From positions 28,631-92,630 of the forward strand of contig JAUIBR010000002.1 of assembly GCA_030427705.1 (NCBI GenBank): a DNA stretch of 64,000 bases, in the 5' to 3' direction. A program made the position numbers and the translations under genes. Positions 1,027-61,400 of this stretch are shown piece by piece (position 1 is the first letter of the stretch; the number at the start of each line of letters is the position of its first letter). The notes below the pieces were generated by a model. It had not been told where the DNA came from. It ran no database searches and saw only the letters and a list, made by a program, of their open reading frames with translations. This DNA comes from a bacterium. Its GTDB lineage: Bacteria; Myxococcota_A; Bradymonadia; Bradymonadales; Bradymonadaceae.

Positions 1027-2426
1027 CGAGTTAGGTCTCCAAACGGTTCATCGGCTGGGAAGAATTCGCTGTGGTCGCCGCCCATATAGTCCATGACGGT
1101 CTTCATTAGACCGCGGTATGAGTAGACTTTACCGAGCGCGTTAAGATCTTCGGCGGACGTGCCACCGAAGGAGCGTCCGCCGTTGCCGGCTTGCTCGATG
1201 ATCCCGCCCATAACTGGCATCGACATCCAACGGGTGGCGTTGTCACCACCGTGGTCGCTGCCGCGGGCCGAGTTGAAGCGTCCACCGCGTGCGGTGCGTC
1301 CGAACTCGGAGCCGAACATGACCAGAGTGTGGTCCCAATACGTTCCGCCTGCTGGGTGCGTCATCGACTTCAGGGCCAGATTGAGACCAGAGATAATCTG
1401 ATTCAACTGCTCGATACGTCCGGGAAGGCCTTCTTCCTCGCCCGAGTGCATGTCGTAGCCGCCCTGGTTCATATAGATGGCGGGGCAACCAAAGTGGAAC
1501 AGGCGCAGGCCCAACATGAGGTTTCGCGCGGTACCCGAGTCGCCCAGCATCATGCGCAGCTGGTTGTTGCTGAGGCCGTCAAACGGCTCATCGCTCTGCT
1601 GCCGCACATCGAGGACCGGGTCATTAAAGATTTCCGCATATCGCTTTGTTGCCTCGCGAGACTGCAAGTATGCGTCAATTGGGGGGCGTGCGATGCGGTG
1701 CGTCTTGTTGAAATAGCGCGTGTCCATGCCGTCGGACATGTTTCGTGCCCATTCCGGCAGCGAACCTGCGGCGTCAAATCCAAAGCCCGAGAATCCGTCC
1801 TGCAACACAGGAGGTCGGTACCCTGCAAATTTACCGGTGCCGTTGGCCATACCCGAGCCGCCGAGAACAAATGCAGGCAAGACGACACCGTCTTCGGTTG
1901 CAGGTTCGCGGTCGCGTAGCGCGTAGTTGATCATCGTGAAGATGCCGGTTCCGTTTCCAGCGTAGCCGGAGACGAAGCGCTGCAAACCGGAGTTGTGGTT
2001 GCCGTCGGCACTACCGGATGTCGGTTCGTGGTCAACGCAAGGGATGACCGCGATCTGGTCAGCGATCTCCGTGACGCTTCCCATGCCCATTTCACGCAGC
2101 GCGGCGCCATTATCCCCTTCCAGGAATGGCGCACGTTCGAGCAATGAGGATGGGCCCCATTCGGCGCCTTCTGCCTTCGATGAGGCTTTTCCGAATGGGT
2201 TAAATCGCGAGGCGACCTCACCATTGAAAGCTGCGGTGAATCGGAATCCACCCGAGAGGCGAATATAGATGAAGTGTTTCACCGACCCGCGTGCTTCGGT
2301 CTGCTGTGCGTGGGCTTCGCTAGGAATCCACACGTGCGGGACCGCCGCCGATGCGGTGGCGAGTCCGACACCCTTCAAAAAGGAGCGTCGGTTGAAACCA
2401 GATTTTTTCTTCGAATCGTCGTTCAT
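1023..2426 (-). CDS. DUF1501 family protein (sulfatase-like fold), Tat-secreted
   Basis: Start chosen at the internal ATG (MNDDSKKKSGFNRRSFLKGVGLATASAA), which gives a twin-arginine signal. The rest matches the DUF1501 pattern (GGYDMHS..., SEFGRTARGG..., GSDHGGDNATRWMSMPV). The ATGA overlap at 1023..1026 couples it to the downstream lipoprotein gene. Confidence 0.8.
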   Translation of the reverse strand: MNDDSKKKSGFNRRSFLKGVGLATASAAVPHVWIPSEAHAQQTEARGSVKHFIYIRLSGGFRFTAAFNGEVASRFNPFGKASSKAEGAEWGPSSLLERAPFLEGDNGAALREMGMGSVTEIADQIAVIPCVDHEPTSGSADGNHNSGLQRFVSGYAGNGTGIFTMINYALRDREPATEDGVVLPAFVLGGSGMANGTGKFAGYRPPVLQDGFSGFGFDAAGSLPEWARNMSDGMDTRYFNKTHRIARPPIDAYLQSREATKRYAEIFNDPVLDVRQQSDEPFDGLSNNQLRMMLGDSGTARNLMLGLRLFHFGCPAIYMNQGGYDMHSGEEEGLPGRIEQLNQIISGLNLALKSMTHPAGGTYWDHTLVMFGSEFGRTARGGRFNSARGSDHGGDNATRWMSMPVMGGIIEQAGNGGRSFGGTSAEDLNALGKVYSYRGLMKTVMDYMGGDHSEFFPADEPFGDLTR

Positions 2427-2436
2427 TTGTTGACCC

Positions 2437-4248
2437 TCAGTAGAAGAGCATTTCTGCGGTGGAAAGAACTGCAAAGCAGGTTGGACGTGCGAACGCGGCC
2501 GCTGTGCATCCACTGCATTGCTCGCCGTATTCGCGAACTTCCGCCCGCTCTTCTTCGGTCGTTAGTCGGCCAAGGAATTGGCCGACCTGATAGTTGTAAA
2601 TCTCTTCCGCTAGGTCGGGCGTGAGGTTGTCCGCTCCGGAAACGTCGCGTGGCAGCAGTGACCGAATGCTCGCGCCGTTGCCGTCGAAGCTGGGGTCGCA
2701 AACCTGGTTTACGAAGTTGAGCTGCTGCGCGGTGGTCAGAATCGAGATGATCTTGAAACGACCACCATTAGTGTTGTCTGGGCATCCACCAAGCGGACGA
2801 ACCGTGTTGCGATACGAGTAGTCGACGCGGACATTGCCTTCGTCATCCACATCGCGAATCTGCCAATTCGAGCGCTCTACCAAAGCGACGCCAGCCAAAG
2901 AGCCCGCCTCCAGGAATTCATCTGGGCGGGTCAGTCTGTGGTCACAGGTCGAGATTTCGTAGCCGGTCATCTCGCGGATGGAATCAACCCACGTCTCGGG
3001 ATCGACCTGTCGGTGCGGACCAAACGTCCAGCGGTAGTCGGTTGGCGTGTTGCCAAGCGTCGACTGCAGGTACGGAATGGATGTCATGACTGCGAAGTGC
3101 AGTGCGCGCATGTCGCCGTTGAACTCCAAGAAGTAGCGGACGAGCTCGTCTCGGACAGCCGGCACCTGGTGACCAAGGTCGTAACCAAGATACTGTTGGA
3201 GCACGTCGTCGACGGCTTTCTCCCAGAACAGGGGCTGTGTCGCCAGGAGTTGCCCAGGTGCTTGCAGCTTCTCCCATTCTTCGGCTTTGAGGATGCCGCT
3301 CCACATCGTGAGGTTGCCGTTCTCGTCGACGCGGGAGCGGATGTCCGGCGTGAAGATCAACTCGTGGTAGCCCCACAAGACGCTTGTGCAGCTGGCTCGA
3401 AGCTCATCTGAGACCTCACCATCTTCACCCACGCACGGATACTGAATGTGCGCGTCAGGAAGGCGCATGCCGAGGTCTGGGTGGTCGTAATAGCCATTGA
3501 ACCAGGTTCCGTAGAGGCGCGACATATCCGCAAGCTCCGTGCCCAGCGGCGGACGCCCCATAAAGGTCGCGAAGAGTGCATCGGTGCGGTCTTCGGGAGT
3601 GTCGTGTCGTCGAGTCAGGACAGGGTGTGCGCTGACCACCGCGGCGAACTCATCGTATGCGATAGTTCCGCGGTAGAGCTTCGCGACGAGGTTGTCCATG
3701 TCATAGATGCGCTCGACGCTCACAGCTTGTGTGTCGTAGAGCAGCCGGTCCGACCAGTGCCGCTTGTTCAACCGGACGAAGTCGTCACGATTGATGAGCG
3801 AAATGGCCACCTCACCCCATGTCTTGCCGTCGCAGGTTGCAACGACTTCGTCACGTGTTGGGAAGCGTCCGATCGCGTCAACAAACATACGTCGGCAGGC
3901 TTCAGCGCGCACAATCGGTTGGTGCTCCAACCCGACGCCCCACAAGCTCTTGCACACGCCTCGGTTGACCGGGTTGGTCAATTGGAGCGCGTCACAATAT
4001 GCCTCGCAGCTTGTTCCGCAGTTCGGCGGAGCAGTGTCATCTGGAATATCACTCACCGGTCGGGCAACCGGAAGCTCGTCGTTACCGCCGAAGAAATCTC
4101 CATTCGAGACCTTCGTCTGTCCGCCTACAAGATCTGCTGGTCCACGTGCTGGATCGTCAAAGCTGAAGCGGTCGTCCTCACAAGCGCTTGCAGCTAATAG
4201 AATCACGAGACCAAACATCGCCGCGGCCCTCACGCGAAATCGATGCAC
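2437..4248 (-). CDS. DUF1549/DUF1553-type protein (partner of DUF1501), lipoprotein
   Basis: Signal peptide with lipobox (MFGLVILLAASAC). A DUF1549-like block (ACRRMFVDAIGRFPTRDEVVA...RHWSDRLLYD) is followed by a DUF1553-like block (GTIAYDEFAAVVSAHPVL). It lies immediately upstream of the DUF1501 gene, with an 11-nt gap. Confidence 0.6.
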   Translation of the reverse strand: MHRFRVRAAAMFGLVILLAASACEDDRFSFDDPARGPADLVGGQTKVSNGDFFGGNDELPVARPVSDIPDDTAPPNCGTSCEAYCDALQLTNPVNRGVCKSLWGVGLEHQPIVRAEACRRMFVDAIGRFPTRDEVVATCDGKTWGEVAISLINRDDFVRLNKRHWSDRLLYDTQAVSVERIYDMDNLVAKLYRGTIAYDEFAAVVSAHPVLTRRHDTPEDRTDALFATFMGRPPLGTELADMSRLYGTWFNGYYDHPDLGMRLPDAHIQYPCVGEDGEVSDELRASCTSVLWGYHELIFTPDIRSRVDENGNLTMWSGILKAEEWEKLQAPGQLLATQPLFWEKAVDDVLQQYLGYDLGHQVPAVRDELVRYFLEFNGDMRALHFAVMTSIPYLQSTLGNTPTDYRWTFGPHRQVDPETWVDSIREMTGYEISTCDHRLTRPDEFLEAGSLAGVALVERSNWQIRDVDDEGNVRVDYSYRNTVRPLGGCPDNTNGGRFKIISILTTAQQLNFVNQVCDPSFDGNGASIRSLLPRDVSGADNLTPDLAEEIYNYQVGQFLGRLTTEEERAEVREYGEQCSGCTAAAFARPTCFAVLSTAEMLFY

Positions 4249-6856: not shown

Positions 6857-7755
6857 ATGTCATCCTTGTTGGCGGCGGACTAGCCGGCGTCACCGTGCAC
6901 CGAGAGTTGGCTACCTTGGGCATCGCGTCCATCTGGTACTCACTGCCTTCCGACAATGTCCCCATCGCAATTGCGCATCCCTTCGCCGGCCGGTCGCTGG
7001 ATGTATCTGCCGACCGACTCGCCGCATATGAACTGACGCTGAATTGGTGGCGAGCGGTAGACCCGGATGACCGATTTCATCGAATCACGCCGGTGCGACG
7101 CGTCGCTCCACAGGGCAGTCGTTTGCACCGCAGTTTCACGCGCACCGGAGACTTTCCAGATTGGCTCAACGTCCGATGGCAAAACGACGAGCTCGTCTAC
7201 GAGGGCGGGCTTACGTGCAAGATGGACGCGTTCATCCAGCAATATCGCACCCAACACGGATGTTTGGAGAAGTCGGTCTCGCAGATTGAGCCGGGCGAGC
7301 CAGCCACGGCAACCGTCGAAGGCTCTCACGTCACCGGCCAGTTCATCTTAACCACAGGCCCTCAGATGGCCGAGTATATCGAGTCGCCCGACCTATCTCC
7401 GGGGGAGCTAGCGGTTGTCGAAGCATCGAGCGACGAGATTCGAATTGGGAGCGGATTCCACGCCTCCGCATCTATGGAAGGACAGATTGGAATCGGCAGC
7501 ACACATGAGCGCGAAGGCGACTCCACCGCCGCCTTGCGAGACGCGCTTCTGGACAAGGCTCAGACGCTTGTTTCCTGGACCGGAGAGCCCAAATGGTATC
7601 GGGGCGTACGACTCAACGCGCTGCCATTGCGAACGCCCCAAATCGTGACCCCCGGACCGAGTGTCTTGGGAATCGCTGCCCTAGGCGGGAAAGGGCTGGT
7701 TTGGGCACCGACACTAGCGAAGCAGCTTGTGCGTGATCACCTTGAAATCCGCTAA
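6850..7755 (+). CDS. FAD-binding oxidoreductase-like protein (possible MnmC oxidase-domain homolog)
   Basis: N-terminal dinucleotide-binding motif MVDVILVGGGLAGVTV. It overlaps the LysR stop by 7 nt. It is convergent with, and overlaps by 42 nt, the DUF752 methyltransferase gene. Confidence 0.45.
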   Translation: MVDVILVGGGLAGVTVHRELATLGIASIWYSLPSDNVPIAIAHPFAGRSLDVSADRLAAYELTLNWWRAVDPDDRFHRITPVRRVAPQGSRLHRSFTRTGDFPDWLNVRWQNDELVYEGGLTCKMDAFIQQYRTQHGCLEKSVSQIEPGEPATATVEGSHVTGQFILTTGPQMAEYIESPDLSPGELAVVEASSDEIRIGSGFHASASMEGQIGIGSTHEREGDSTAALRDALLDKAQTLVSWTGEPKWYRGVRLNALPLRTPQIVTPGPSVLGIAALGGKGLVWAPTLAKQLVRDHLEIR

Positions 7756-52237: not shown

Positions 52238-52939
52238 ATGCGATTTCTAGTTTTGTTTTTGTTGGTTGTTCTGGCCGGTTGCTCCGAAGACGAGAGCGGC
52301 AACAACGCAAATAATATGTCGAATAACGGCAATAATTCGAACAACGTCAACAACGTTAACAACGTTAACAATTCGAATAACGTGAACAACGTGAACAACG
52401 TGAACAACGTCAACAATTCGAATAACGTCAACAACAGCAACAACGCGAACAACAGCAATAACGCGAACAACAGCAACAACGCGAACAATACGGTCGCCGA
52501 CATGGGTGCTGACATGAATATGTCAGATGCTGGCATGGATATGGGAGCGGACCCGTATGCCGGACGTCCATTGGGTCAGTGTGCTGTGTCTGCGGATTGC
52601 CCTGAGAATCCAAACGGTAAGCTCTGCAATCGCCTGCTTCCGGGCGGAAGTTGTGGTGCATGTGGCGATGACAACCACTGTGATGACACGTGCTTCGTTG
52701 GAACCTGTGTAACGACCTGCAGCGACGAAAATGACTGCCCACCTGGGTTGGTATGCACGTCAGCTGGGCGTTGCGGTGCGGCGCTGTGTGTGAATGACGT
52801 CTGCCCGATTCCGTTCTACGGCTGTAGCACGTCGAATCGTTGTCAACGCATCGACTGCACGGGCGATGCGTCCGTATGTCCCGCTGGCACAACCTGCGCT
52901 GCAAACATCTGCATCGAAGATCGCCTGCTGAACAATTAG
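52238..52939 (+). CDS. secreted lipoprotein with ~60-residue Asn-rich (NNVNN) low-complexity linker and Cys-rich C-terminal domain
   Basis: Lipobox LAGCSEDES. DNA 52297..52497 is a tandem AACAACGT(C/G)AAC codon repeat. The C-terminal domain (CAVSADCPENPNGKLC...SDENDCPPGLVCT...) resembles the C-terminus of the convergent gene 52936..54339. Confidence 0.7.
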   Translation: MRFLVLFLLVVLAGCSEDESGNNANNMSNNGNNSNNVNNVNNVNNSNNVNNVNNVNNVNNSNNVNNSNNANNSNNANNSNNANNTVADMGADMNMSDAGMDMGADPYAGRPLGQCAVSADCPENPNGKLCNRLLPGGSCGACGDDNHCDDTCFVGTCVTTCSDENDCPPGLVCTSAGRCGAALCVNDVCPIPFYGCSTSNRCQRIDCTGDASVCPAGTTCAANICIEDRLLNN

Positions 52940-54339
52940 AGCCCTGGCAGACAGCTCATCGTGCCACTCAATAGGTCAGGCAGACAGCTATAGCCATTGC
53001 GGCAATCGTTGTCAGACGTGCATGACTTCGTGCACGTGATCGGTGAGTTGGCGAAAGCGTTGAACGTGCAGACCGAACCGGCCGGGCATGTGCCTCCCAT
53101 TGGGAAGCAAAGCGTCGTGCAGTAGCCGCCGGGCGCCGAGAGCTCACACGTCGCGAGCCCGAGCCCTCCGCCAACACCGCAATCAGCATCCGAGGCGCAT
53201 GGCGCGCCGATACCAGCTGCCGCGTCACAGGTGTTGTTTGCTGTGCATCCTTCGCCGGACGGGCACACGCCGCAGTCCAAAGCTTGGCCACAACCATCGT
53301 TGGCTTGACCGCACTCGAAGCCTTGCGAAGCGCACGTTCGTGGCGTGCAGTTGCAGTCCGAATCGTTTTGGCTTGAGCAGTTTGACGGGCAGCATCCATC
53401 GCCGCCCTGGCAGACGGTCACGGTGTCATAGATGCATTGAACGTTGCAGTTGTCGGCCGAGCCGATGAGCGTGTCGGTCGTGCAAGCGACGTTGTCGTTA
53501 CACGATGTGGGGCAGTTGCCGTCACATGTCTCCATGCCGTCGAGCTGGCCGTTTCCACAAGCGCCCGAGCAGTCTGAGTCGTTGCTGGGTGTGCATGCTG
53601 CTGGGCAACATCCGTCGCCGCCCTGACAGACTTGGACCGGCGTTGTTTCGCAGCGAGCGTCACATGAGTCGGCTGTTCCAACCAATGTGGCGCCCACGCA
53701 AGCATTCGGGCTGGCGCACGAGGTTGGGCAGTCTCCATCACACGTCTCGCCCTCATCGATCGTTCCGTTTCCGCAATCGCCCATGACCTGGCTGCAATCC
53801 GAGTCGTCGTCGACGGTGCAACCTGGCAGGCAGCATCCGTCGCCGTCATCGCAGATTTGGATGGGGACGAAGTCACAACGCACCGAGCACGTGTCTGGGC
53901 TGCCTTTGACCACGCCTTCGCTGCAAGCTTCCGGTGATGGACAGGACGCTGGGCAGTCACCATCACAGGTCTCTGGACCTTCGACGACGCCGTCCCCACA
54001 GGTGTTTGTGCAATCGCTATCGGTCGTGGAGTCGCACCCGGTGGGGCAGCAACCGTCGCCGTTGGCGCACGCGATGGGTTCGACGATGCAGCGGGCAGTG
54101 CAGGCGTTCGCGTCTCCATCCAAGACAGCCGTGCTGCACGCGGGTGCAGAACACGAGTTGGGGCAAGCGCCCTCCCCACTTTCGATGCTTGGATCACAGA
54201 TTTCGCCGGGGTCCAACGCACCGTTCCCGCAGGTCCCGCCTGTATTCGGCGACTTGCCCTTGTTCTTGCTGGTATCGCTTCCGCAACCAACAAAGAGCCC
54301 AACCGCGACCATCAAAATGAGTAGATATATACGCTTCAT
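52936..54339 (-). CDS. secreted lipoprotein composed of Myxococcus-type cysteine-rich repeats (paralog of 22606..24006)
   Basis: Lipobox LFVGCGSDTS. Repeats CGNGALDPGEICD..., CGDGVVEGPETCDGDC..., CGNGTIDEGETCDGDC..., CGNGQLDGMETCDGNC..., plus a C-terminal Cys-rich domain. It overlaps the 52238 gene tail by 4 nt, convergently. Confidence 0.8.
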   Translation of the reverse strand: MKRIYLLILMVAVGLFVGCGSDTSKNKGKSPNTGGTCGNGALDPGEICDPSIESGEGACPNSCSAPACSTAVLDGDANACTARCIVEPIACANGDGCCPTGCDSTTDSDCTNTCGDGVVEGPETCDGDCPASCPSPEACSEGVVKGSPDTCSVRCDFVPIQICDDGDGCCLPGCTVDDDSDCSQVMGDCGNGTIDEGETCDGDCPTSCASPNACVGATLVGTADSCDARCETTPVQVCQGGDGCCPAACTPSNDSDCSGACGNGQLDGMETCDGNCPTSCNDNVACTTDTLIGSADNCNVQCIYDTVTVCQGGDGCCPSNCSSQNDSDCNCTPRTCASQGFECGQANDGCGQALDCGVCPSGEGCTANNTCDAAAGIGAPCASDADCGVGGGLGLATCELSAPGGYCTTLCFPMGGTCPAGSVCTFNAFANSPITCTKSCTSDNDCRNGYSCLPDLLSGTMSCLPGL

Positions 54340-56947: not shown

Positions 56948-57036
56948 GGCTCTCCGTTCAAAAACGAACGGTCGATGATTAAGCCAATTCCATGCCACGC
57001 TGCGCTTGCACGGAGTTTACCCACGATCAAACCCTT

Positions 57037-57100
57037 ATAAGCAGTTTAACTGAAACTGCTTATACCTTGACCTATAAGCAGTTTCACCTAAACTGCTTAT
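57037..57100. promoter_or_regulatory. two copies of a perfect 11-5-11 inverted repeat (ATAAGCAGTTT-N5-AAACTGCTTAT) abutting the ATG at 57101; TTGACC between them
   Basis: IR1 at 57037..57063 has spacer AACTG. IR2 at 57074..57100 has spacer CACCT. Centre-to-centre distance is 37 bp. Read directly from the sequence. Confidence 0.7.
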
Positions 57101-58117
57101 ATGGAGCGATTGTCGTCACCAACACAGCTACTCTACGCCGAGCTCCTGCAATCACTTCTGGTTGCAGCGAACCCGAAACGCGGCGTCTCCTTCCATACGA
57201 AAGAGGTGGATGGAAATCGCTATTGGTACATGGATTATGTGCTGGGTGAGCAGCGAAATGCCTACTACCTGGGACCTGCCGATGAAGAGTTGACGGCGCT
57301 CATCAACACGATGAAAGCCAACTGGAGCGACGACGCTCCTGACGCGAAAGCGCGGGCGAAGCTGGTCGCGATGGTCCGTGCCGGTGGTGCAACTGAGATT
57401 TCCGGCCGACATGCGCGCGTCCTTGAAGCACTGGCTCAAGCAGGAGTGTTTGCCGTTGGCGGAGTGCTCGTTGGCTCGCACGCCTTCGCGCTGATGGGCA
57501 ATATGTTGGGGGTTCGCTGGGAAAAGGCCGCCATGCGCACTCAAGATGTGGATATCGCCAAGGACTACACGATCCACGTAAACGTACCCTCGGCCGACCT
57601 ACCGCAGGCATTGGACGCCACGGAGCTTGGCTTCATTCCAGTACCGTCGCTTAACCGGAAGGCCGCATCGACATCGTTCAAGGTTCGCGGCGAGGAGCTT
57701 TCGGTCAGCGTGCTAACGCCGATGCGAGGCAAACCCGACGGCTCGCCAATCACAATTCCTGGCCTTGGCACAATGGCCGAACCACTGCGTTTTCTGGACT
57801 ACCTGCTTGAAGACACACAGCCAGCCGCTGTTCCAGTGCGACAAGGCGTGTTGGTTCAGGTGCCATCCCCTGCCCGATTCGCGCTACACAAACTCGTTGT
57901 CTCACAACGGCGACCAGCCGCGTTTGCAACGAAGTCGACCAAGGACATTCGCCAGGCTGAGTTGGTCCTCGAAGTGCTGTTGGAGGACCGTCCTGGAGAT
58001 ATCATGTTGGCGTGGGAAGCGGCTGAAATGATGCCCGCGAAGTTCATGAAAGAGCTGCAACTGGGTCTGAAGCAGTGCGCAGCTCTCATTCGCGAAGAGA
58101 TCTTGGCTCTCGGATGA
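57101..58117 (+). CDS. nucleotidyltransferase-fold protein (pol-beta superfamily-like; AbiEii/GSU2403-like), hypothetical
   Basis: LEALAQAGVFAVGGVLVGSHAF...RTQDVDIAKD fits hG[GS]...DhDh. It is similar in its local pattern to 59378..60232 (LQQALDEAGVEFLLAGGMGLYL...TSDLDVML). Preceded by the palindromic operators. Confidence 0.45.
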   Translation: MERLSSPTQLLYAELLQSLLVAANPKRGVSFHTKEVDGNRYWYMDYVLGEQRNAYYLGPADEELTALINTMKANWSDDAPDAKARAKLVAMVRAGGATEISGRHARVLEALAQAGVFAVGGVLVGSHAFALMGNMLGVRWEKAAMRTQDVDIAKDYTIHVNVPSADLPQALDATELGFIPVPSLNRKAASTSFKVRGEELSVSVLTPMRGKPDGSPITIPGLGTMAEPLRFLDYLLEDTQPAAVPVRQGVLVQVPSPARFALHKLVVSQRRPAAFATKSTKDIRQAELVLEVLLEDRPGDIMLAWEAAEMMPAKFMKELQLGLKQCAALIREEILALG

Positions 58118-58898: not shown

Positions 58899-59381
58899 GT
58901 GACTGTGAATAAATGCACCCAAGTATTTGTTATTTTCGCTCTATTGACTTCGTGCGCAGCAGAACCTGAATCGGCCTCGCCGATGCCCGACATGGCAATC
59001 GAGGATTCCGCACCAGATCAAGGCGATTTGGTGGACTCCGCTGATATGGTCGTGTCGTGCTACGAGCTAGACCGAGAGGAATGTCTTGCGCGAAATCAGA
59101 CCGGATGCTTGTCGCTGCTGCTTTACACCTGGAATGAGGCGGATAACTGCATTGATTACGGTTCACAGGACACCATGTGCGTTCCGGAATCGACCGTCCA
59201 AAGCAATACAGAAGCTTCCATCATTGGTCCGGATGGGGAATGCATTGTGATTTCCGAAGGTGTCTCGACGCTTCCTGGTTACCAAGTTTATCAACATGTC
59301 GGTTGCAGCTGCGATCCAGATACGAATGGCCTGCCAACGACCGAAGGCTGTGATCCGGCTCCGTCTTCATGTACGGATTAG
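58899..59381 (+). CDS. small Cys-containing lipoprotein, hypothetical (GTG start inferred)
   Basis: VTVNKCTQVFVIFALLTSCAAEPES has a lipobox. Track ORF 58806..59381 begins upstream and overlaps the previous gene; GTG at 58899 is proposed. GC drops here. Confidence 0.4.
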   Translation: MTVNKCTQVFVIFALLTSCAAEPESASPMPDMAIEDSAPDQGDLVDSADMVVSCYELDREECLARNQTGCLSLLLYTWNEADNCIDYGSQDTMCVPESTVQSNTEASIIGPDGECIVISEGVSTLPGYQVYQHVGCSCDPDTNGLPTTEGCDPAPSSCTD

Positions 59382-60232
59382 TCCTGCAGCACCGAACACG
59401 CTGCGAACAACTCGCTCAGATCCTGAATGAACTGGGGAACGTAGGTTGAGAACTCAGGGTCAGATTGAAAACTAGGGTGCTCCCTCAACCTCAGTATCCC
59501 CGGACTAGTCGGTGTGCCAAAGTTCAGACGTTGTAGATTCGCGGCCCGTTGGAGATAGTCCTGGTCGTTGTCGTCTTGCACGTGCTGTATAGCGGCCTCC
59601 CAGTCTTCCTCTCGCATGTCAGTCACGACACGAAACACGTCCAACGCATGATGGCGACCATTATCGGATTTCTCATCTGGGCTATCCTTGCGGTCCTCGA
59701 ATGCATGCAGCTTCAAGATGACATAGTTCATCGCCGATGGGATGTTCACACTCACGCCCGACCGAAACTCCAGACTCACGGGGAATTTTGAGATTCCTTG
59801 TGCTTCTTCGGTGACTCTCGCATGTATCCCACTTACGTGATGAGGACGTATTCTCGGTCCATTAATCTTCACCTGACGCCGCTCATCCACCGGCTTTGGC
59901 GCAAGAAGATCGACCTTAACCTCGATGTCATCAGCAACCTTGCGGGCGAATTGATAGTGTTTCGCTATCGACCGATACTCCATGTCGCGTAACACGCCCT
60001 TCAAAGCCTCCATCTGCGGCGCACTCACAATGACTTCTACGGTCAACATGACGTCCAAGTCCGATGTGGTGCGAGAGATCGGGCGTTTCGGATATCGTGG
60101 CGAACGCCCGGCAAGATCCAAAGAGATGTCCCGGAGATAGAGCCCCATTCCCCCGGCCAGAAGAAACTCCACGCCAGCCTCGTCGAGTGCCTGTTGCAAA
60201 ATGGCCAGCTCATCGGTCAGGTAATCAAACAC
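59378..60232 (-). CDS. nucleotidyltransferase, AbiEii-like (type IV toxin-antitoxin / abortive-infection toxin family-like)
   Basis: The GTG at 60232..60230 lies 1 nt after the stop of the upstream gene, indicating translational coupling. N-terminus VFDYLTDELAILQQALDEAGVEFLLAGGMGLYL...SDLDVML fits the hG[GS]-x(n)-[DE]h[DE]h nucleotidyltransferase signature. The longer track ORF (start 60430) overlaps the upstream gene by 197 nt. Confidence 0.5.
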   Translation of the reverse strand: MFDYLTDELAILQQALDEAGVEFLLAGGMGLYLRDISLDLAGRSPRYPKRPISRTTSDLDVMLTVEVIVSAPQMEALKGVLRDMEYRSIAKHYQFARKVADDIEVKVDLLAPKPVDERRQVKINGPRIRPHHVSGIHARVTEEAQGISKFPVSLEFRSGVSVNIPSAMNYVILKLHAFEDRKDSPDEKSDNGRHHALDVFRVVTDMREEDWEAAIQHVQDDNDQDYLQRAANLQRLNFGTPTSPGILRLREHPSFQSDPEFSTYVPQFIQDLSELFAACSVLQD

Positions 60233-60233
60233 C

Positions 60234-61277
60234 CTAGCCTCCAATTTGGCTTGGCAGGCGACGTAGTAACTCCGATGCAGTTTCCAACTCGCGCTTTCCG
60301 CCTCGGTTTCTGAGCGCGAGATAAGACTCCAAGGCCGAAGCCCATCCGTCCTTCTGGTCGAAGAACACCCACTTGTCAGGCGTCGCGATGAGCGTGGTGT
60401 TGTAAAACCGCTCGTCGACAAGGGACTCAAGCTCCTCTATTTGCTGCCATCGGTCCGCCTTTACGTAGATGTTGTTCTCCAAAGGTGGATTTGTTGCTGT
60501 GTATCGAGCCGAAGAGTCTTCCGGCGCCCTCACCCAGTTTCCTGCACCAAGTGTCCGATTCAATAGGTCATCCAATTCGTCTGGATTGATCTTCAGACGA
60601 AGCTTCTCTCCTTCACGAGGCCGCTGGTAACGCTCCTCGAGAGTTTTGAGCAATCGTTCTGCCTGAAGGATAGAAATCGCGTCCCGGCTCTTTTCAATCA
60701 TCACATCAGTGTCCAACGCCTTAAGCGCTTTGGAAACAGTCGATAGTGCGAGTGTTCCTCCATGTCGGTTGAGCGCCTCTTGGACCTCGGAGACACTGCT
60801 GTAGGTGTTCTCGTTCAGCAGCATCAACCTTGCGACCATCGATGTATCACCAGCGTAGATGTTCTTGATGGCGCGCGAATTGGGATACTTGTTTTGCCTG
60901 TCTTGCCTGACTGCGACGAAGTCGTCTCCTACCAACATGTAGTTTCCGTTTAGATCAACGGCTCCTACCCCAACGGCGTAGCGACTGAGCACTTCGATAA
61001 CACTACTTGTGAGGTATCTGACCACCACAACCCGCAAGTCTCCCTTTTGCCCCGTGGAATTCGCGTGAACTAACTCGTTTCTGAGTTCCTTAGGCCCCAC
61101 GTCCGCACGAATCTCGAAGTCAATCCTTCGACGTTGCCCCAGCCACACGATGTCAAATGCCCCCTTTGCATCAGTAAGAGTCAAGGACTTGGGATCGATG
61201 GTCAGGGGCGCTAAGAAGTCCTCAGGCTCCTCCGTTAACGCGGCCTCGAAGATTCGAACTGCTTTCTGTACTTCCAT
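60234..61277 (-). CDS. AbiEi-like partner protein with helix-turn-helix, hypothetical
   Basis: 347 aa. An HTH-like segment (SVSEVQEALNRHGGTLALSTVSKALKALD). Immediately upstream of, and coupled to, the nucleotidyltransferase gene. Confidence 0.45.
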   Translation of the reverse strand: MEVQKAVRIFEAALTEEPEDFLAPLTIDPKSLTLTDAKGAFDIVWLGQRRRIDFEIRADVGPKELRNELVHANSTGQKGDLRVVVVRYLTSSVIEVLSRYAVGVGAVDLNGNYMLVGDDFVAVRQDRQNKYPNSRAIKNIYAGDTSMVARLMLLNENTYSSVSEVQEALNRHGGTLALSTVSKALKALDTDVMIEKSRDAISILQAERLLKTLEERYQRPREGEKLRLKINPDELDDLLNRTLGAGNWVRAPEDSSARYTATNPPLENNIYVKADRWQQIEELESLVDERFYNTTLIATPDKWVFFDQKDGWASALESYLALRNRGGKRELETASELLRRLPSQIGG

Positions 61278-61400
61278 GGTTTCCCATTACTAACATTTTC
61301 CCATACGAGAAAACACCAATCATGGGAAAACACTACCACGCCATTTTCCCGTTTTAAAGATTTTCCGAGTTGAGAAAACCAATATTTCAGGAAAAACAAG
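61278..61400 (-). promoter_or_regulatory. AT-rich promoter region with reiterated TTTTCCC / GGGAAAACA / GAGAAAAC motifs upstream of the two-gene module
   Basis: GGTTTCCCATTACTAACATTTTCCCATACGAGAAAACACCAATCATGGGAAAACACTACCACGCCATTTTCCCGTTTTAAAGATTTTCCGAGTTGAGAAAACC, read directly from the sequence. Confidence 0.4.

Follow-up and report, generated by a model that had tools for sequence, protein, structure and literature searches.

A Promoter-Overlapping Dyad Conserved across the GSU2403 Nucleotidyltransferase Family Suggests Autorepression through a Predicted N-Terminal Beta-Sheet Domain

In the AbiE system, the winged helix–turn–helix (wHTH) protein AbiEi binds two inverted repeats, IR1 and IR2, at the −35 element and represses its operon (Dy et al. 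2014, PMC3985639), whose nucleotidyltransferase, AbiEii, is of the DUF1814 type. The gene analyzed here occupies positions 57101–58117 of the forward strand in a 64-kb stretch of contig JAUIBR010000002.1, referred to in its entirety as the window, and encodes a complete protein of 338 residues that Pfam and its homologues identify as a 'GSU2403 family nucleotidyltransferase fold protein'. AbiE is its closest analogue in function, and the likeness lies in the combination of a Pol-beta-type nucleotidyltransferase gene with inverted repeats over the promoter, which here would serve repression, and in a family that is widespread and plasmid-borne. In contrast to AbiE, there is a single gene, with no AbiEi (COG5340-type wHTH) gene upstream and with neighbors that are not conserved across 79 loci; the enzyme matches PF12281 only, rather than DUF1814/PF08843, and has no PADLOC match; and the putative reader of the repeats is an N-terminal module of a helix, three beta strands and a helix rather than a wHTH. 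The gene thus appears to be regulated in the manner of AbiE, yet it is no member of that system, because it has no partner gene, is not of the DUF1814 type and lacks a wHTH.

Two further groups of proteins offer partial parallels. The bifunctional enzyme–repressors, or 'trigger enzymes', BirA, PutA and NadR each join an N-terminal DNA-binding module to an enzyme and have a dyad over their own promoter; the reader of PutA is a beta-sheet (ribbon–helix–helix) module, and NadR bears a nucleotidyltransferase domain. What they share with the protein described here is the one-polypeptide logic, without any relationship in sequence or fold, and whereas they regulate metabolic operons, the family protein apparently regulates itself alone. 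In the fused toxin–antitoxin defense protein CapRel-SJ46, the enzyme is inhibited by a regulatory domain that also senses a phage protein. Here, too, a potentially toxic domain for nucleotidyl or pyrophosphoryl transfer shares one chain with a regulatory domain; in the GSU2403 family, however, the extra domain apparently reads DNA, and CapRel is not known to have a self-operator.

Based on the data presented below, a simple model would be that this single-polypeptide nucleotidyltransferase represses its own gene through its N-terminal beta-sheet domain, which we consider the probable explanation. In this model, the N-terminal domain of approximately 95 residues would bind 29-bp dyads, probably as a dimer. 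The proximal dyad (dyad 2) spans the region from just after the −35 element (TTGACC) through the −10 element (TAAACT) to the predicted +1, and because it covers the promoter through +1, its occupation would exclude RNA polymerase. The distal dyad (dyad 1), 37 bp upstream, would act as an auxiliary operator that adds cooperativity. The resulting tight negative feedback would keep the C-terminal PF12281 nucleotidyltransferase low and buffered. By analogy with AbiEii- and MenT-type nucleotidyltransferases, the substrate of the enzyme might be tRNA or another RNA 3′ end. Autorepression by the product itself, via its approximately 100 N-terminal residues, had been suggested in an original prediction made from the window alone; it now gains strong comparative support from the family-wide dyad, the promoter overlay, the co-variation of the N-terminal domain with the dyad, and the absence of a conserved neighbor. 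From these sequence comparisons we infer physical binding, as we do dimerization, repression, the transcription start and a derepressing signal.

The two dyads of the window consist of TATAAGCAGTTT-N5-AAACTGCTTATA in two copies, with starts 37 nucleotides (nt) apart, and were recovered by a repeat finder with 12-nt arms of 100% complementarity around 5-nt centers. Dyad 1, the putative distal operator (TATAAGCAGTTT-aactg-AAACTGCTTATA, 57036–57064), lies upstream of the −35 element and has no promoter elements of its own; dyad 2, the putative proximal operator (TATAAGCAGTTT-cacct-AAACTGCTTATA, 57073–57101), spans the promoter spacer, the −10 element and +1. The whole region, 57030–57103, reads cccTTATAAGCAGTTTaactgAAACTGCTTATAccTTGACCTATAAGCAGTTTcacctAAACTGCTTATATG. 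The palindrome had originally been described with 11-nt arms and a 5-nt center, occurring twice at a distance of 37 bp with a TTGACC hexamer in between. All of these details hold (ATAAGCAGTTT-aactg-AAACTGCTTAT at 57037–57063, ATAAGCAGTTT-cacct-AAACTGCTTAT at 57074–57100, TTGACC at 57067–57072), the arms being 1 nt longer than had been noticed. The accompanying statement that the second copy stops just before the ATG holds for the 11-nt arm, which ends at 57100; the final A of the 12-nt arm is the A of the start codon (57101). When up to one mismatch was allowed, the 11-mer was found in the whole 64-kb window only as the four half-sites of these dyads, compared with an expectation of 0.55, and none of 100 shuffles of the window reached a count of four. 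A chance origin of the dyads was rejected on these grounds, and the search for additional copies of the 11-mer dyad that had been advised at the outset yielded, within the window, nothing beyond the four half-sites.

To place these dyads in a family context, the DNA upstream of each start codon was scanned at 80 homologous loci drawn from one-genome-per-species collections, with sources in at least six phyla (Gammaproteobacteria, Nitrospirota, Myxococcota, Coriobacteriia, Elusimicrobia, Acidobacteriota and others). Nearly every locus carries one to four copies of a dyad of 29–35 bp with the form (G)TTATA[C/A]NNNN – ~10–12 nt – NNNN[G/T]TATAA(C). A strict definition required TATA plus 5 nt, with no more than one mismatch per arm, within 230 nt upstream; by this measure, at least one copy was present at 70 of 78 loci, and 89 strict dyads were counted in 17.9 kb of upstream DNA versus 2 in the remaining 645 kb of locus DNA, an enrichment of approximately 1,600-fold. 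Most of the loci that fail the strict definition retain the same 33–35 bp geometry with other arms, such as CTATCAGG (L027), CTATCATCC (L068) and TTGTCAGCAC (L079). We regard it as close to certain that the dyads serve this gene as a conserved cis-regulatory element at the level of DNA.

A cultured bacterium also carries a dyad of this kind. On plasmid pTA1_3 of Rhizobium ruizarguesonis TA1, a family member of 38% identity (WP_027689919.1) is preceded by the dyad GTTATTACCA-N12-TGGTCATAAC (L204, 2864–2895), which ends 14 nt before the ATG. At the divergent members L068, L079 and L027, dyad position and the 33–35 bp geometry are kept while the arms differ widely (GCTATCATCCAACT, (A/G)TTGTCAGCACGTT and GCTATCAGG), with two dyad copies each in L068 and L079; by their sequences, these arms apparently extend the natural range of specificities past the TTATAC type. 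Only two dyads were found out of place, and one of them lies in the Coriobacteriia locus L061, at approximately 3459, 1,542 nt upstream of the gene start.

In the window, a consensus scan of 500 bp identified a sole promoter-like site, TTGACC – 16 nt – TAAACT (57067–57094, forward strand). The −35-like hexamer (57067–57072) touches the left edge of dyad 2, and the −10-like hexamer (57089–57094) lies within the dyad, straddling its center and right arm. A start 7 nt past the −10 element falls on the A of the ATG codon (57101–57103), and there is no Shine–Dalgarno sequence upstream of this ATG; the window transcript is therefore predicted to be leaderless, with +1 at the A of the start codon.

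The same arrangement recurs across the family when 74 proximal dyads are superimposed by their arms. Directly 5′ of these dyads, six bases favor T-(T/G)-G-(A/C)-G-T (T in 45, G in 39 and T in 64 of 74), and the interior next to the right arm favors T-A-n-a-(C-T) (T in 56 and A in 64 of 74), with a spacer of 17 nt between the two elements. These signals are oriented toward the gene: on the gene-ward strand, 45 of 74 proximal dyads have TAnnnT in the −10 slot, compared with 5 of 74 in mirror image, and TTG occupies the −35 slot in 38 of 74 versus 13 of 74 for the mirror slot. Among the distal dyads, 1 of 27 and 2 of 27 carry the −10 and −35 signals, respectively. At most loci, 13–27 nt separate the end of the proximal dyad from the start codon, enough for a short leader and a ribosome-binding site; at 14 of 74 loci, the window included, this distance is no more than 7 nt. 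The putative operator is thus positioned over the gene's own predicted core promoter, which is sigma-70-like with TTGnnT at −35 and TAnnnT at −10, as would be expected of a self-repressing enzyme, and the layout is that of a repressor site predicted to block RNA polymerase, with optional auxiliary sites upstream.

The 338-residue product matches Pfam PF12281 (NTP_transf_8) over residues 104–307 (57410–58021) with 184.3 bits (cut-off 26.3; E = 3.9e-54), in agreement with the nucleotidyltransferase core that had been recognized from the sequence. In an alignment of 33 sequences, S126 and D151 do not vary and conservation reaches at least 90% at G125 and D149, so that the G125-S126 and D149-x-D151 elements of the Pol-beta-type hG[GS]…[DE]x[DE] signature are present. 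Among the candidates scored in a database search were 2,946 relatives; the best, proteins of approximately 340 residues, are 49%–64% identical along 93%–100% of the length. Relatives that bear a name at NCBI are called 'GSU2403 family nucleotidyltransferase fold protein'. The homologues are collinear over their full length, including the N-terminal ~100 residues, and because their alignment begins at M1, the ATG at 57101 is the true start; an alternative start codon further downstream was ruled out. The first ~95 residues (57101–57385), the proposed operator reader, are conserved as strongly as the enzyme core, with Y12, L15, G28, Y43, G49, G58 and R85 among the conserved positions.

More generally, the GSU2403/PF12281 family comprises at least 2,900 clusters in many phyla and is present on 441 plasmid records in PLSDB, mostly from Rhizobiaceae and Rhodobacterales; none of its members was found on phage records. 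The 338-residue protein has no match in NCBIfam, PADLOC or PHROG and, in Pfam, no recombinase or transposase domain; a toxin–antitoxin or defense role, considered at the outset, thus gained no support from these annotations. The searchable literature contains nothing on PF12281, mentions GSU2403 once in passing, and characterizes no family member.

No second gene accompanies the family. All-against-all clustering of the open reading frames (ORFs) of at least 70 residues within 3.5 kb gave no conserved neighbor across 79 loci, the only clusters being spurious frames inside the family gene itself, and no ORF of 30–150 residues within 700 nt recurred beyond two closely related genomes. On both counts, the idea of a conserved partner or antitoxin gene, small ORFs included, was rejected. 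At the window locus, the gene is flanked by a divergent gene for a 622-residue, lipoprotein-like product and by a downstream gene for a 232-residue product; neither has a significant Pfam or DNA-binding domain, which bears out the initial observation that no regulator gene is adjacent. The family gene behaves as a self-contained one-gene cassette.

Structure prediction addressed the question, raised at the outset, of whether the first 100 residues contain a helix–turn–helix (HTH). None is predicted, and this candidate was rejected: the models show a helix, a three-stranded sheet and a helix instead. In the N-terminal model, calculated from 67 sequences with a predicted local distance difference test score (pLDDT) of 86, a helix (residues 6–20) is followed by strands at 29–36, 39–48 and 51–59 and by helical structure from residue 62 to residue 94; in the full-length model, the helix after the sheet is broken at a conserved proline. 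With the sheet-face register derived from the strand limits and the two-residue turns at 37–38 and 49–50, residues 28, 30 and 32, residues 43, 45 and 47, and residues 52, 54 and 56 would share one face of the sheet, and F31 and W42 would lie on the opposite face. On this putative shared face would lie Y43, which is invariant, S30 and Y56, which are nearly so, and the majority of the columns that distinguish operator classes, including residues 45 and 54 on adjacent predicted strands.

A full-library phmmer search with residues 1–100 gave 111 matches, in which the domain occurs only at the N terminus of ~340-residue proteins or in fragments; no other architecture was found among them. Sequence searches identified no relative of solved structure for the whole protein or for the N-terminal profile. 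One resemblance is to the arm domain PF13356 of P4-like tyrosine integrases (PDB 3rmp), in which a helix likewise comes after a three-stranded antiparallel sheet and the motif spacing is similar (G-x-S/L…YWY…G…K…LG); it differs in that the domain described here has an extra N-terminal helix and is joined to a nucleotidyltransferase rather than a recombinase. PF13356 was detected in 2 of 48 N-termini (best E = 0.0072, not significant); in hhalign comparisons, the N-terminal domain aligned with Escherichia coli IntS (E = 0.04) and IntA (E = 0.11) below threshold, with the strands in the expected register; and in Foldseek, 3rmp_C had a probability of 0.47, which is not significant. An identity with integrase arm domains was rejected, all three methods falling short of significance, and the resemblance is a lead rather than membership. 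The N-terminal domain is exclusive to the GSU2403 family and structurally unassigned, with no significant match to a solved DNA-binding fold.

If the N-terminal domain reads the dyad, the two should vary together. Arm classes were named by the bases that follow TATA and comprise CGCAG (23 loci), CGGAG (12), CCGCA (9), AGCAG (6, among them the window locus and L002, the relative closest to it) and rarer others. Operator distance correlates with the divergence of residues 1–100 when the rest of the protein is controlled for (partial r = 0.37, p = 0.0005; partial Mantel test, 2,000 permutations), whereas the converse partial correlation, between operator and C-terminal divergence, is −0.15. Of the 25 alignment columns that best discriminate the classes, 19 fall within residues 1–100, where 7.4 would be expected.

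Two positions stand out. At residue 45, all 31 CGC loci have Q, all 12 CGG loci E, all 12 CCG loci Y or F and all 5 CGT loci Q; at residue 54, Q is found throughout the CGC, CGG and CGT loci, S or A in all 6 AGC loci and E in all 12 CCG loci. Where E45 occurs outside the CGG class (L058, TATAGGG; L027, TATCAGG), the seventh arm position is again G. The same pairing was obtained in a set of metagenome loci found from DNA alone (described below), where, among the matches listed, 38 of 38 CGCAG loci encode Q45 and 28 of 28 CGGAG loci E45; the sole AGCAG locus among them has Q45, S54 and F32, as do other AGC members. The C-terminal parts of the window protein and L002 are 54%–58% identical to the CGC class versus 50%–53% to the other members of the AGC class, and the pairing of S/A54 with A at arm position 5 is therefore not simply that of one tight clade. 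Self-recognition would be expected to produce co-variation of this kind and an unlinked regulator would not, yet the pattern falls short of proving contact.

The reverse search started from the DNA. JGI metagenomes were scanned for TATAMGSAGT-N9-10-ACTSCKTATA, which returned at least 120 loci; in 68 of those listed, the dyad lies 5–74 nt (mode 19–22) upstream of a family gene. Among the matches listed that have room for a gene on both sides, a family gene is adjacent in 20 of 24 CGCAG and 16 of 25 CGGAG loci (36 of 49). In the AGGAG class, which is used by no family member and served as a control, there were 9 loci among the matches listed, none of them beside a family gene. The association between dyad and gene is very strong, yet not exclusive.

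Some of the metagenome loci deserve separate description. Orphan dyads of the CGGAG class (TATACGGAGT-N10-ACTCCGTATA), with no GSU2403-family gene nearby, were found in L152, L174, L154, L196, L201, L121 and L094. Those of L152 (3134–3164) and L174 (6535–6565) are located between convergent genes, approximately 26 nt past the stop codon of a conserved gene for 166–195 residues, which itself lies behind a gene for a SWIM-zinc-finger protein. Orphan dyads of this class could be targets in trans, remnants or terminator-like hairpins. In L141, an intact CGCAG dyad (7191–7221) is followed 22 nt on by a family N terminus that ends after 44 residues (MDYLPESTRLLYSQLLSQCLHASAPSGRGISFVKRSLGRTYATN), either a pseudogene or an assembly frameshift.

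Several observations weigh against autorepression through the N-terminal domain. The predicted domain has no significant match to a solved DNA-binding fold, and the hints of an integrase arm domain are all below threshold. The window protein itself departs from the other AGC-class members, with D45 and A54 where they have Q45 and S54. Shared ancestry confounds the co-variation statistics, as the operator classes are largely clades, and the partial Mantel test is known to be liberal. Exact dyads occur in the metagenome scan away from any family gene, one group of them recurring between convergent genes. Finally, the 56 arm mismatches in 104 dyads (L002–L081, gene-sense strand) include 16 of the G·T/T·G type versus 6 of the A·C/C·A type, a weak hint of single-strand pairing; the excess may reflect a mutational bias or some pairing of single strands, and the counts are non-independent, as related loci share mismatches.

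An unlinked host regulator, for which the dyads would be operators and the nucleotidyltransferase merely one target, would account for the lack of a recognized DNA-binding fold in the product and for the minority of exact metagenome dyads without an adjacent family gene. Against such a regulator, the dyad has followed the gene into at least six phyla and into plasmids, no neighbor being conserved, and the sequence of the dyad tracks the N-terminal rather than the C-terminal domain of the gene product. In addition, the 64-kb window contains no further copy of the dyad, and the unattached dyads of the metagenomes are about as frequent as those of the AGGAG control, none of which is adjacent to a family gene. 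We consider this alternative unlikely. The palindromes might instead function as nucleic-acid hairpins, in the form of a leader RNA that masks the start codon (perhaps bound by the protein, for which it would be a translational operator) or of a terminator-like or cruciform structure; the dyads are perfect palindromes, dyad 2 abuts the AUG, the mismatches favor G·T over A·C, and orphan dyads lie between convergent genes, where terminators sit. The region as RNA also folds at −41.6 kcal/mol (z = −9.8), but any two identical palindromes would trivially give so strong a fold. Against hairpins, the oriented −35 and −10 signals within the proximal dyad place it upstream of +1, with the distal dyads further upstream still; the promoter overlay thus speaks against transcripts from this promoter that include the dyads. 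The arms are preserved in sequence across phyla, beyond what pairing demands, around an interior that is near-constant in length and non-palindromic, and 40 of the 56 mismatches are unable to pair even as G·U. There is no T-run, no terminator-like site was scored, and no Rfam family matches, the best, RAGATH-11, reaching 23.3 bits versus a gathering score of 79.4. That weak match (57096–57204, reverse strand; E = 0.069) is antisense to the 5′ end of the gene and most likely due to chance. Taken together, these data make a hairpin function quite improbable.

The solitary gene in its varied neighborhoods, the 441 plasmid records and the faint similarity of the N-terminal domain to integrase arm-binding domains could also point to a small mobile cassette, with the dyads as its recombination or transposition ends. 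The dyads are confined to the 5′ side of the gene, however, the two found elsewhere in the 645 kb of flanking DNA giving no consistent 3′ copy; the protein has no recombinase or transposase domain; and the promoter overlay accounts for where the dyads are placed. Mobile elements with dyads at both gene ends were not seen in the locus flanks, and we regard this explanation as very improbable.

Autorepression through the N-terminal domain thus stands as the favored model, and it suggests a broader reading that we advance tentatively, as one that falls a little short of being probable. The GSU2403/PF12281 proteins may form an unrecognized class of one-gene, self-repressing nucleotidyltransferases, a fused counterpart of two-gene, AbiE-like systems. 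Their N terminus would be a new beta-sheet DNA-binding fold with a simple, readable code, in which arm position 7 would be read by residue 45 (Q, E or Y/F) and arm position 5 by residue 54 (Q, S/A or E). A large, named but uncharacterized family would thereby gain a concrete, if proposed, regulatory mechanism along with a cis-element of 29–35 bp on a sigma-70-type promoter. Should the N-terminal domain indeed read the dyad, it would be a DNA-binding module without a counterpart among solved structures, and the natural variants CGC/Q45, CGG/E45, CCG/Y45 and AGC/S54 would be suited to the dissection of a recognition code and to the design of orthogonal repressor–operator pairs. If the model is true, tight, AbiE-like autorepression of a nucleotidyltransferase exists in a fused, single-gene form, which would bear on the domestication and intergenomic movement of toxin-like enzymes. 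Cultured carriers such as R. ruizarguesonis TA1, with WP_027689919.1 on pTA1_3, provide a convenient experimental system.

The window also holds a two-gene, AbiE-like module 1.3 kb downstream (59378–61277, reverse strand). Its first gene (60234–61277, reverse strand) encodes 347 residues, and relatives of 32% identity match Pfam AbiEi_2 (28.3 bits, cut-off 21) and a Crp-type HTH; the second, directly behind it, encodes 284 residues with a weak match to PF12281 (30.8 bits versus a cut-off of 26.3). The description of the GSU2403-family gene as paralog-like to this downstream 284-residue gene was overstated and is only loosely true, the two products sharing 31% identity over 68 residues (E = 2e-4). 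An inverted repeat, TTTTCCCAT-N17-ATGGGAAAA, is located at 61296–61330, 19–53 nt upstream of the start of the 347-residue gene, and may be the module's own operator. The arrangement in the window is echoed in L061, where genes for a wHTH-like protein of 342 residues and a nucleotidyltransferase-like protein of 253 residues (1285–3068) lie 2 kb upstream of the GSU2403-family gene; homology of this pair to the two-gene module was not accepted, the similarities being marginal (E = 0.22 and 0.001).

Elsewhere in the window, two secreted or lipoprotein-like ORFs stand out by low complexity or repeats: one (52238–52939, forward strand) has an Asn-rich NNV/NNS run after its signal peptide, and the other (52936–54339, reverse strand) encodes 467 residues with repeated Cys-rich CxxGDGCCPxxC modules.

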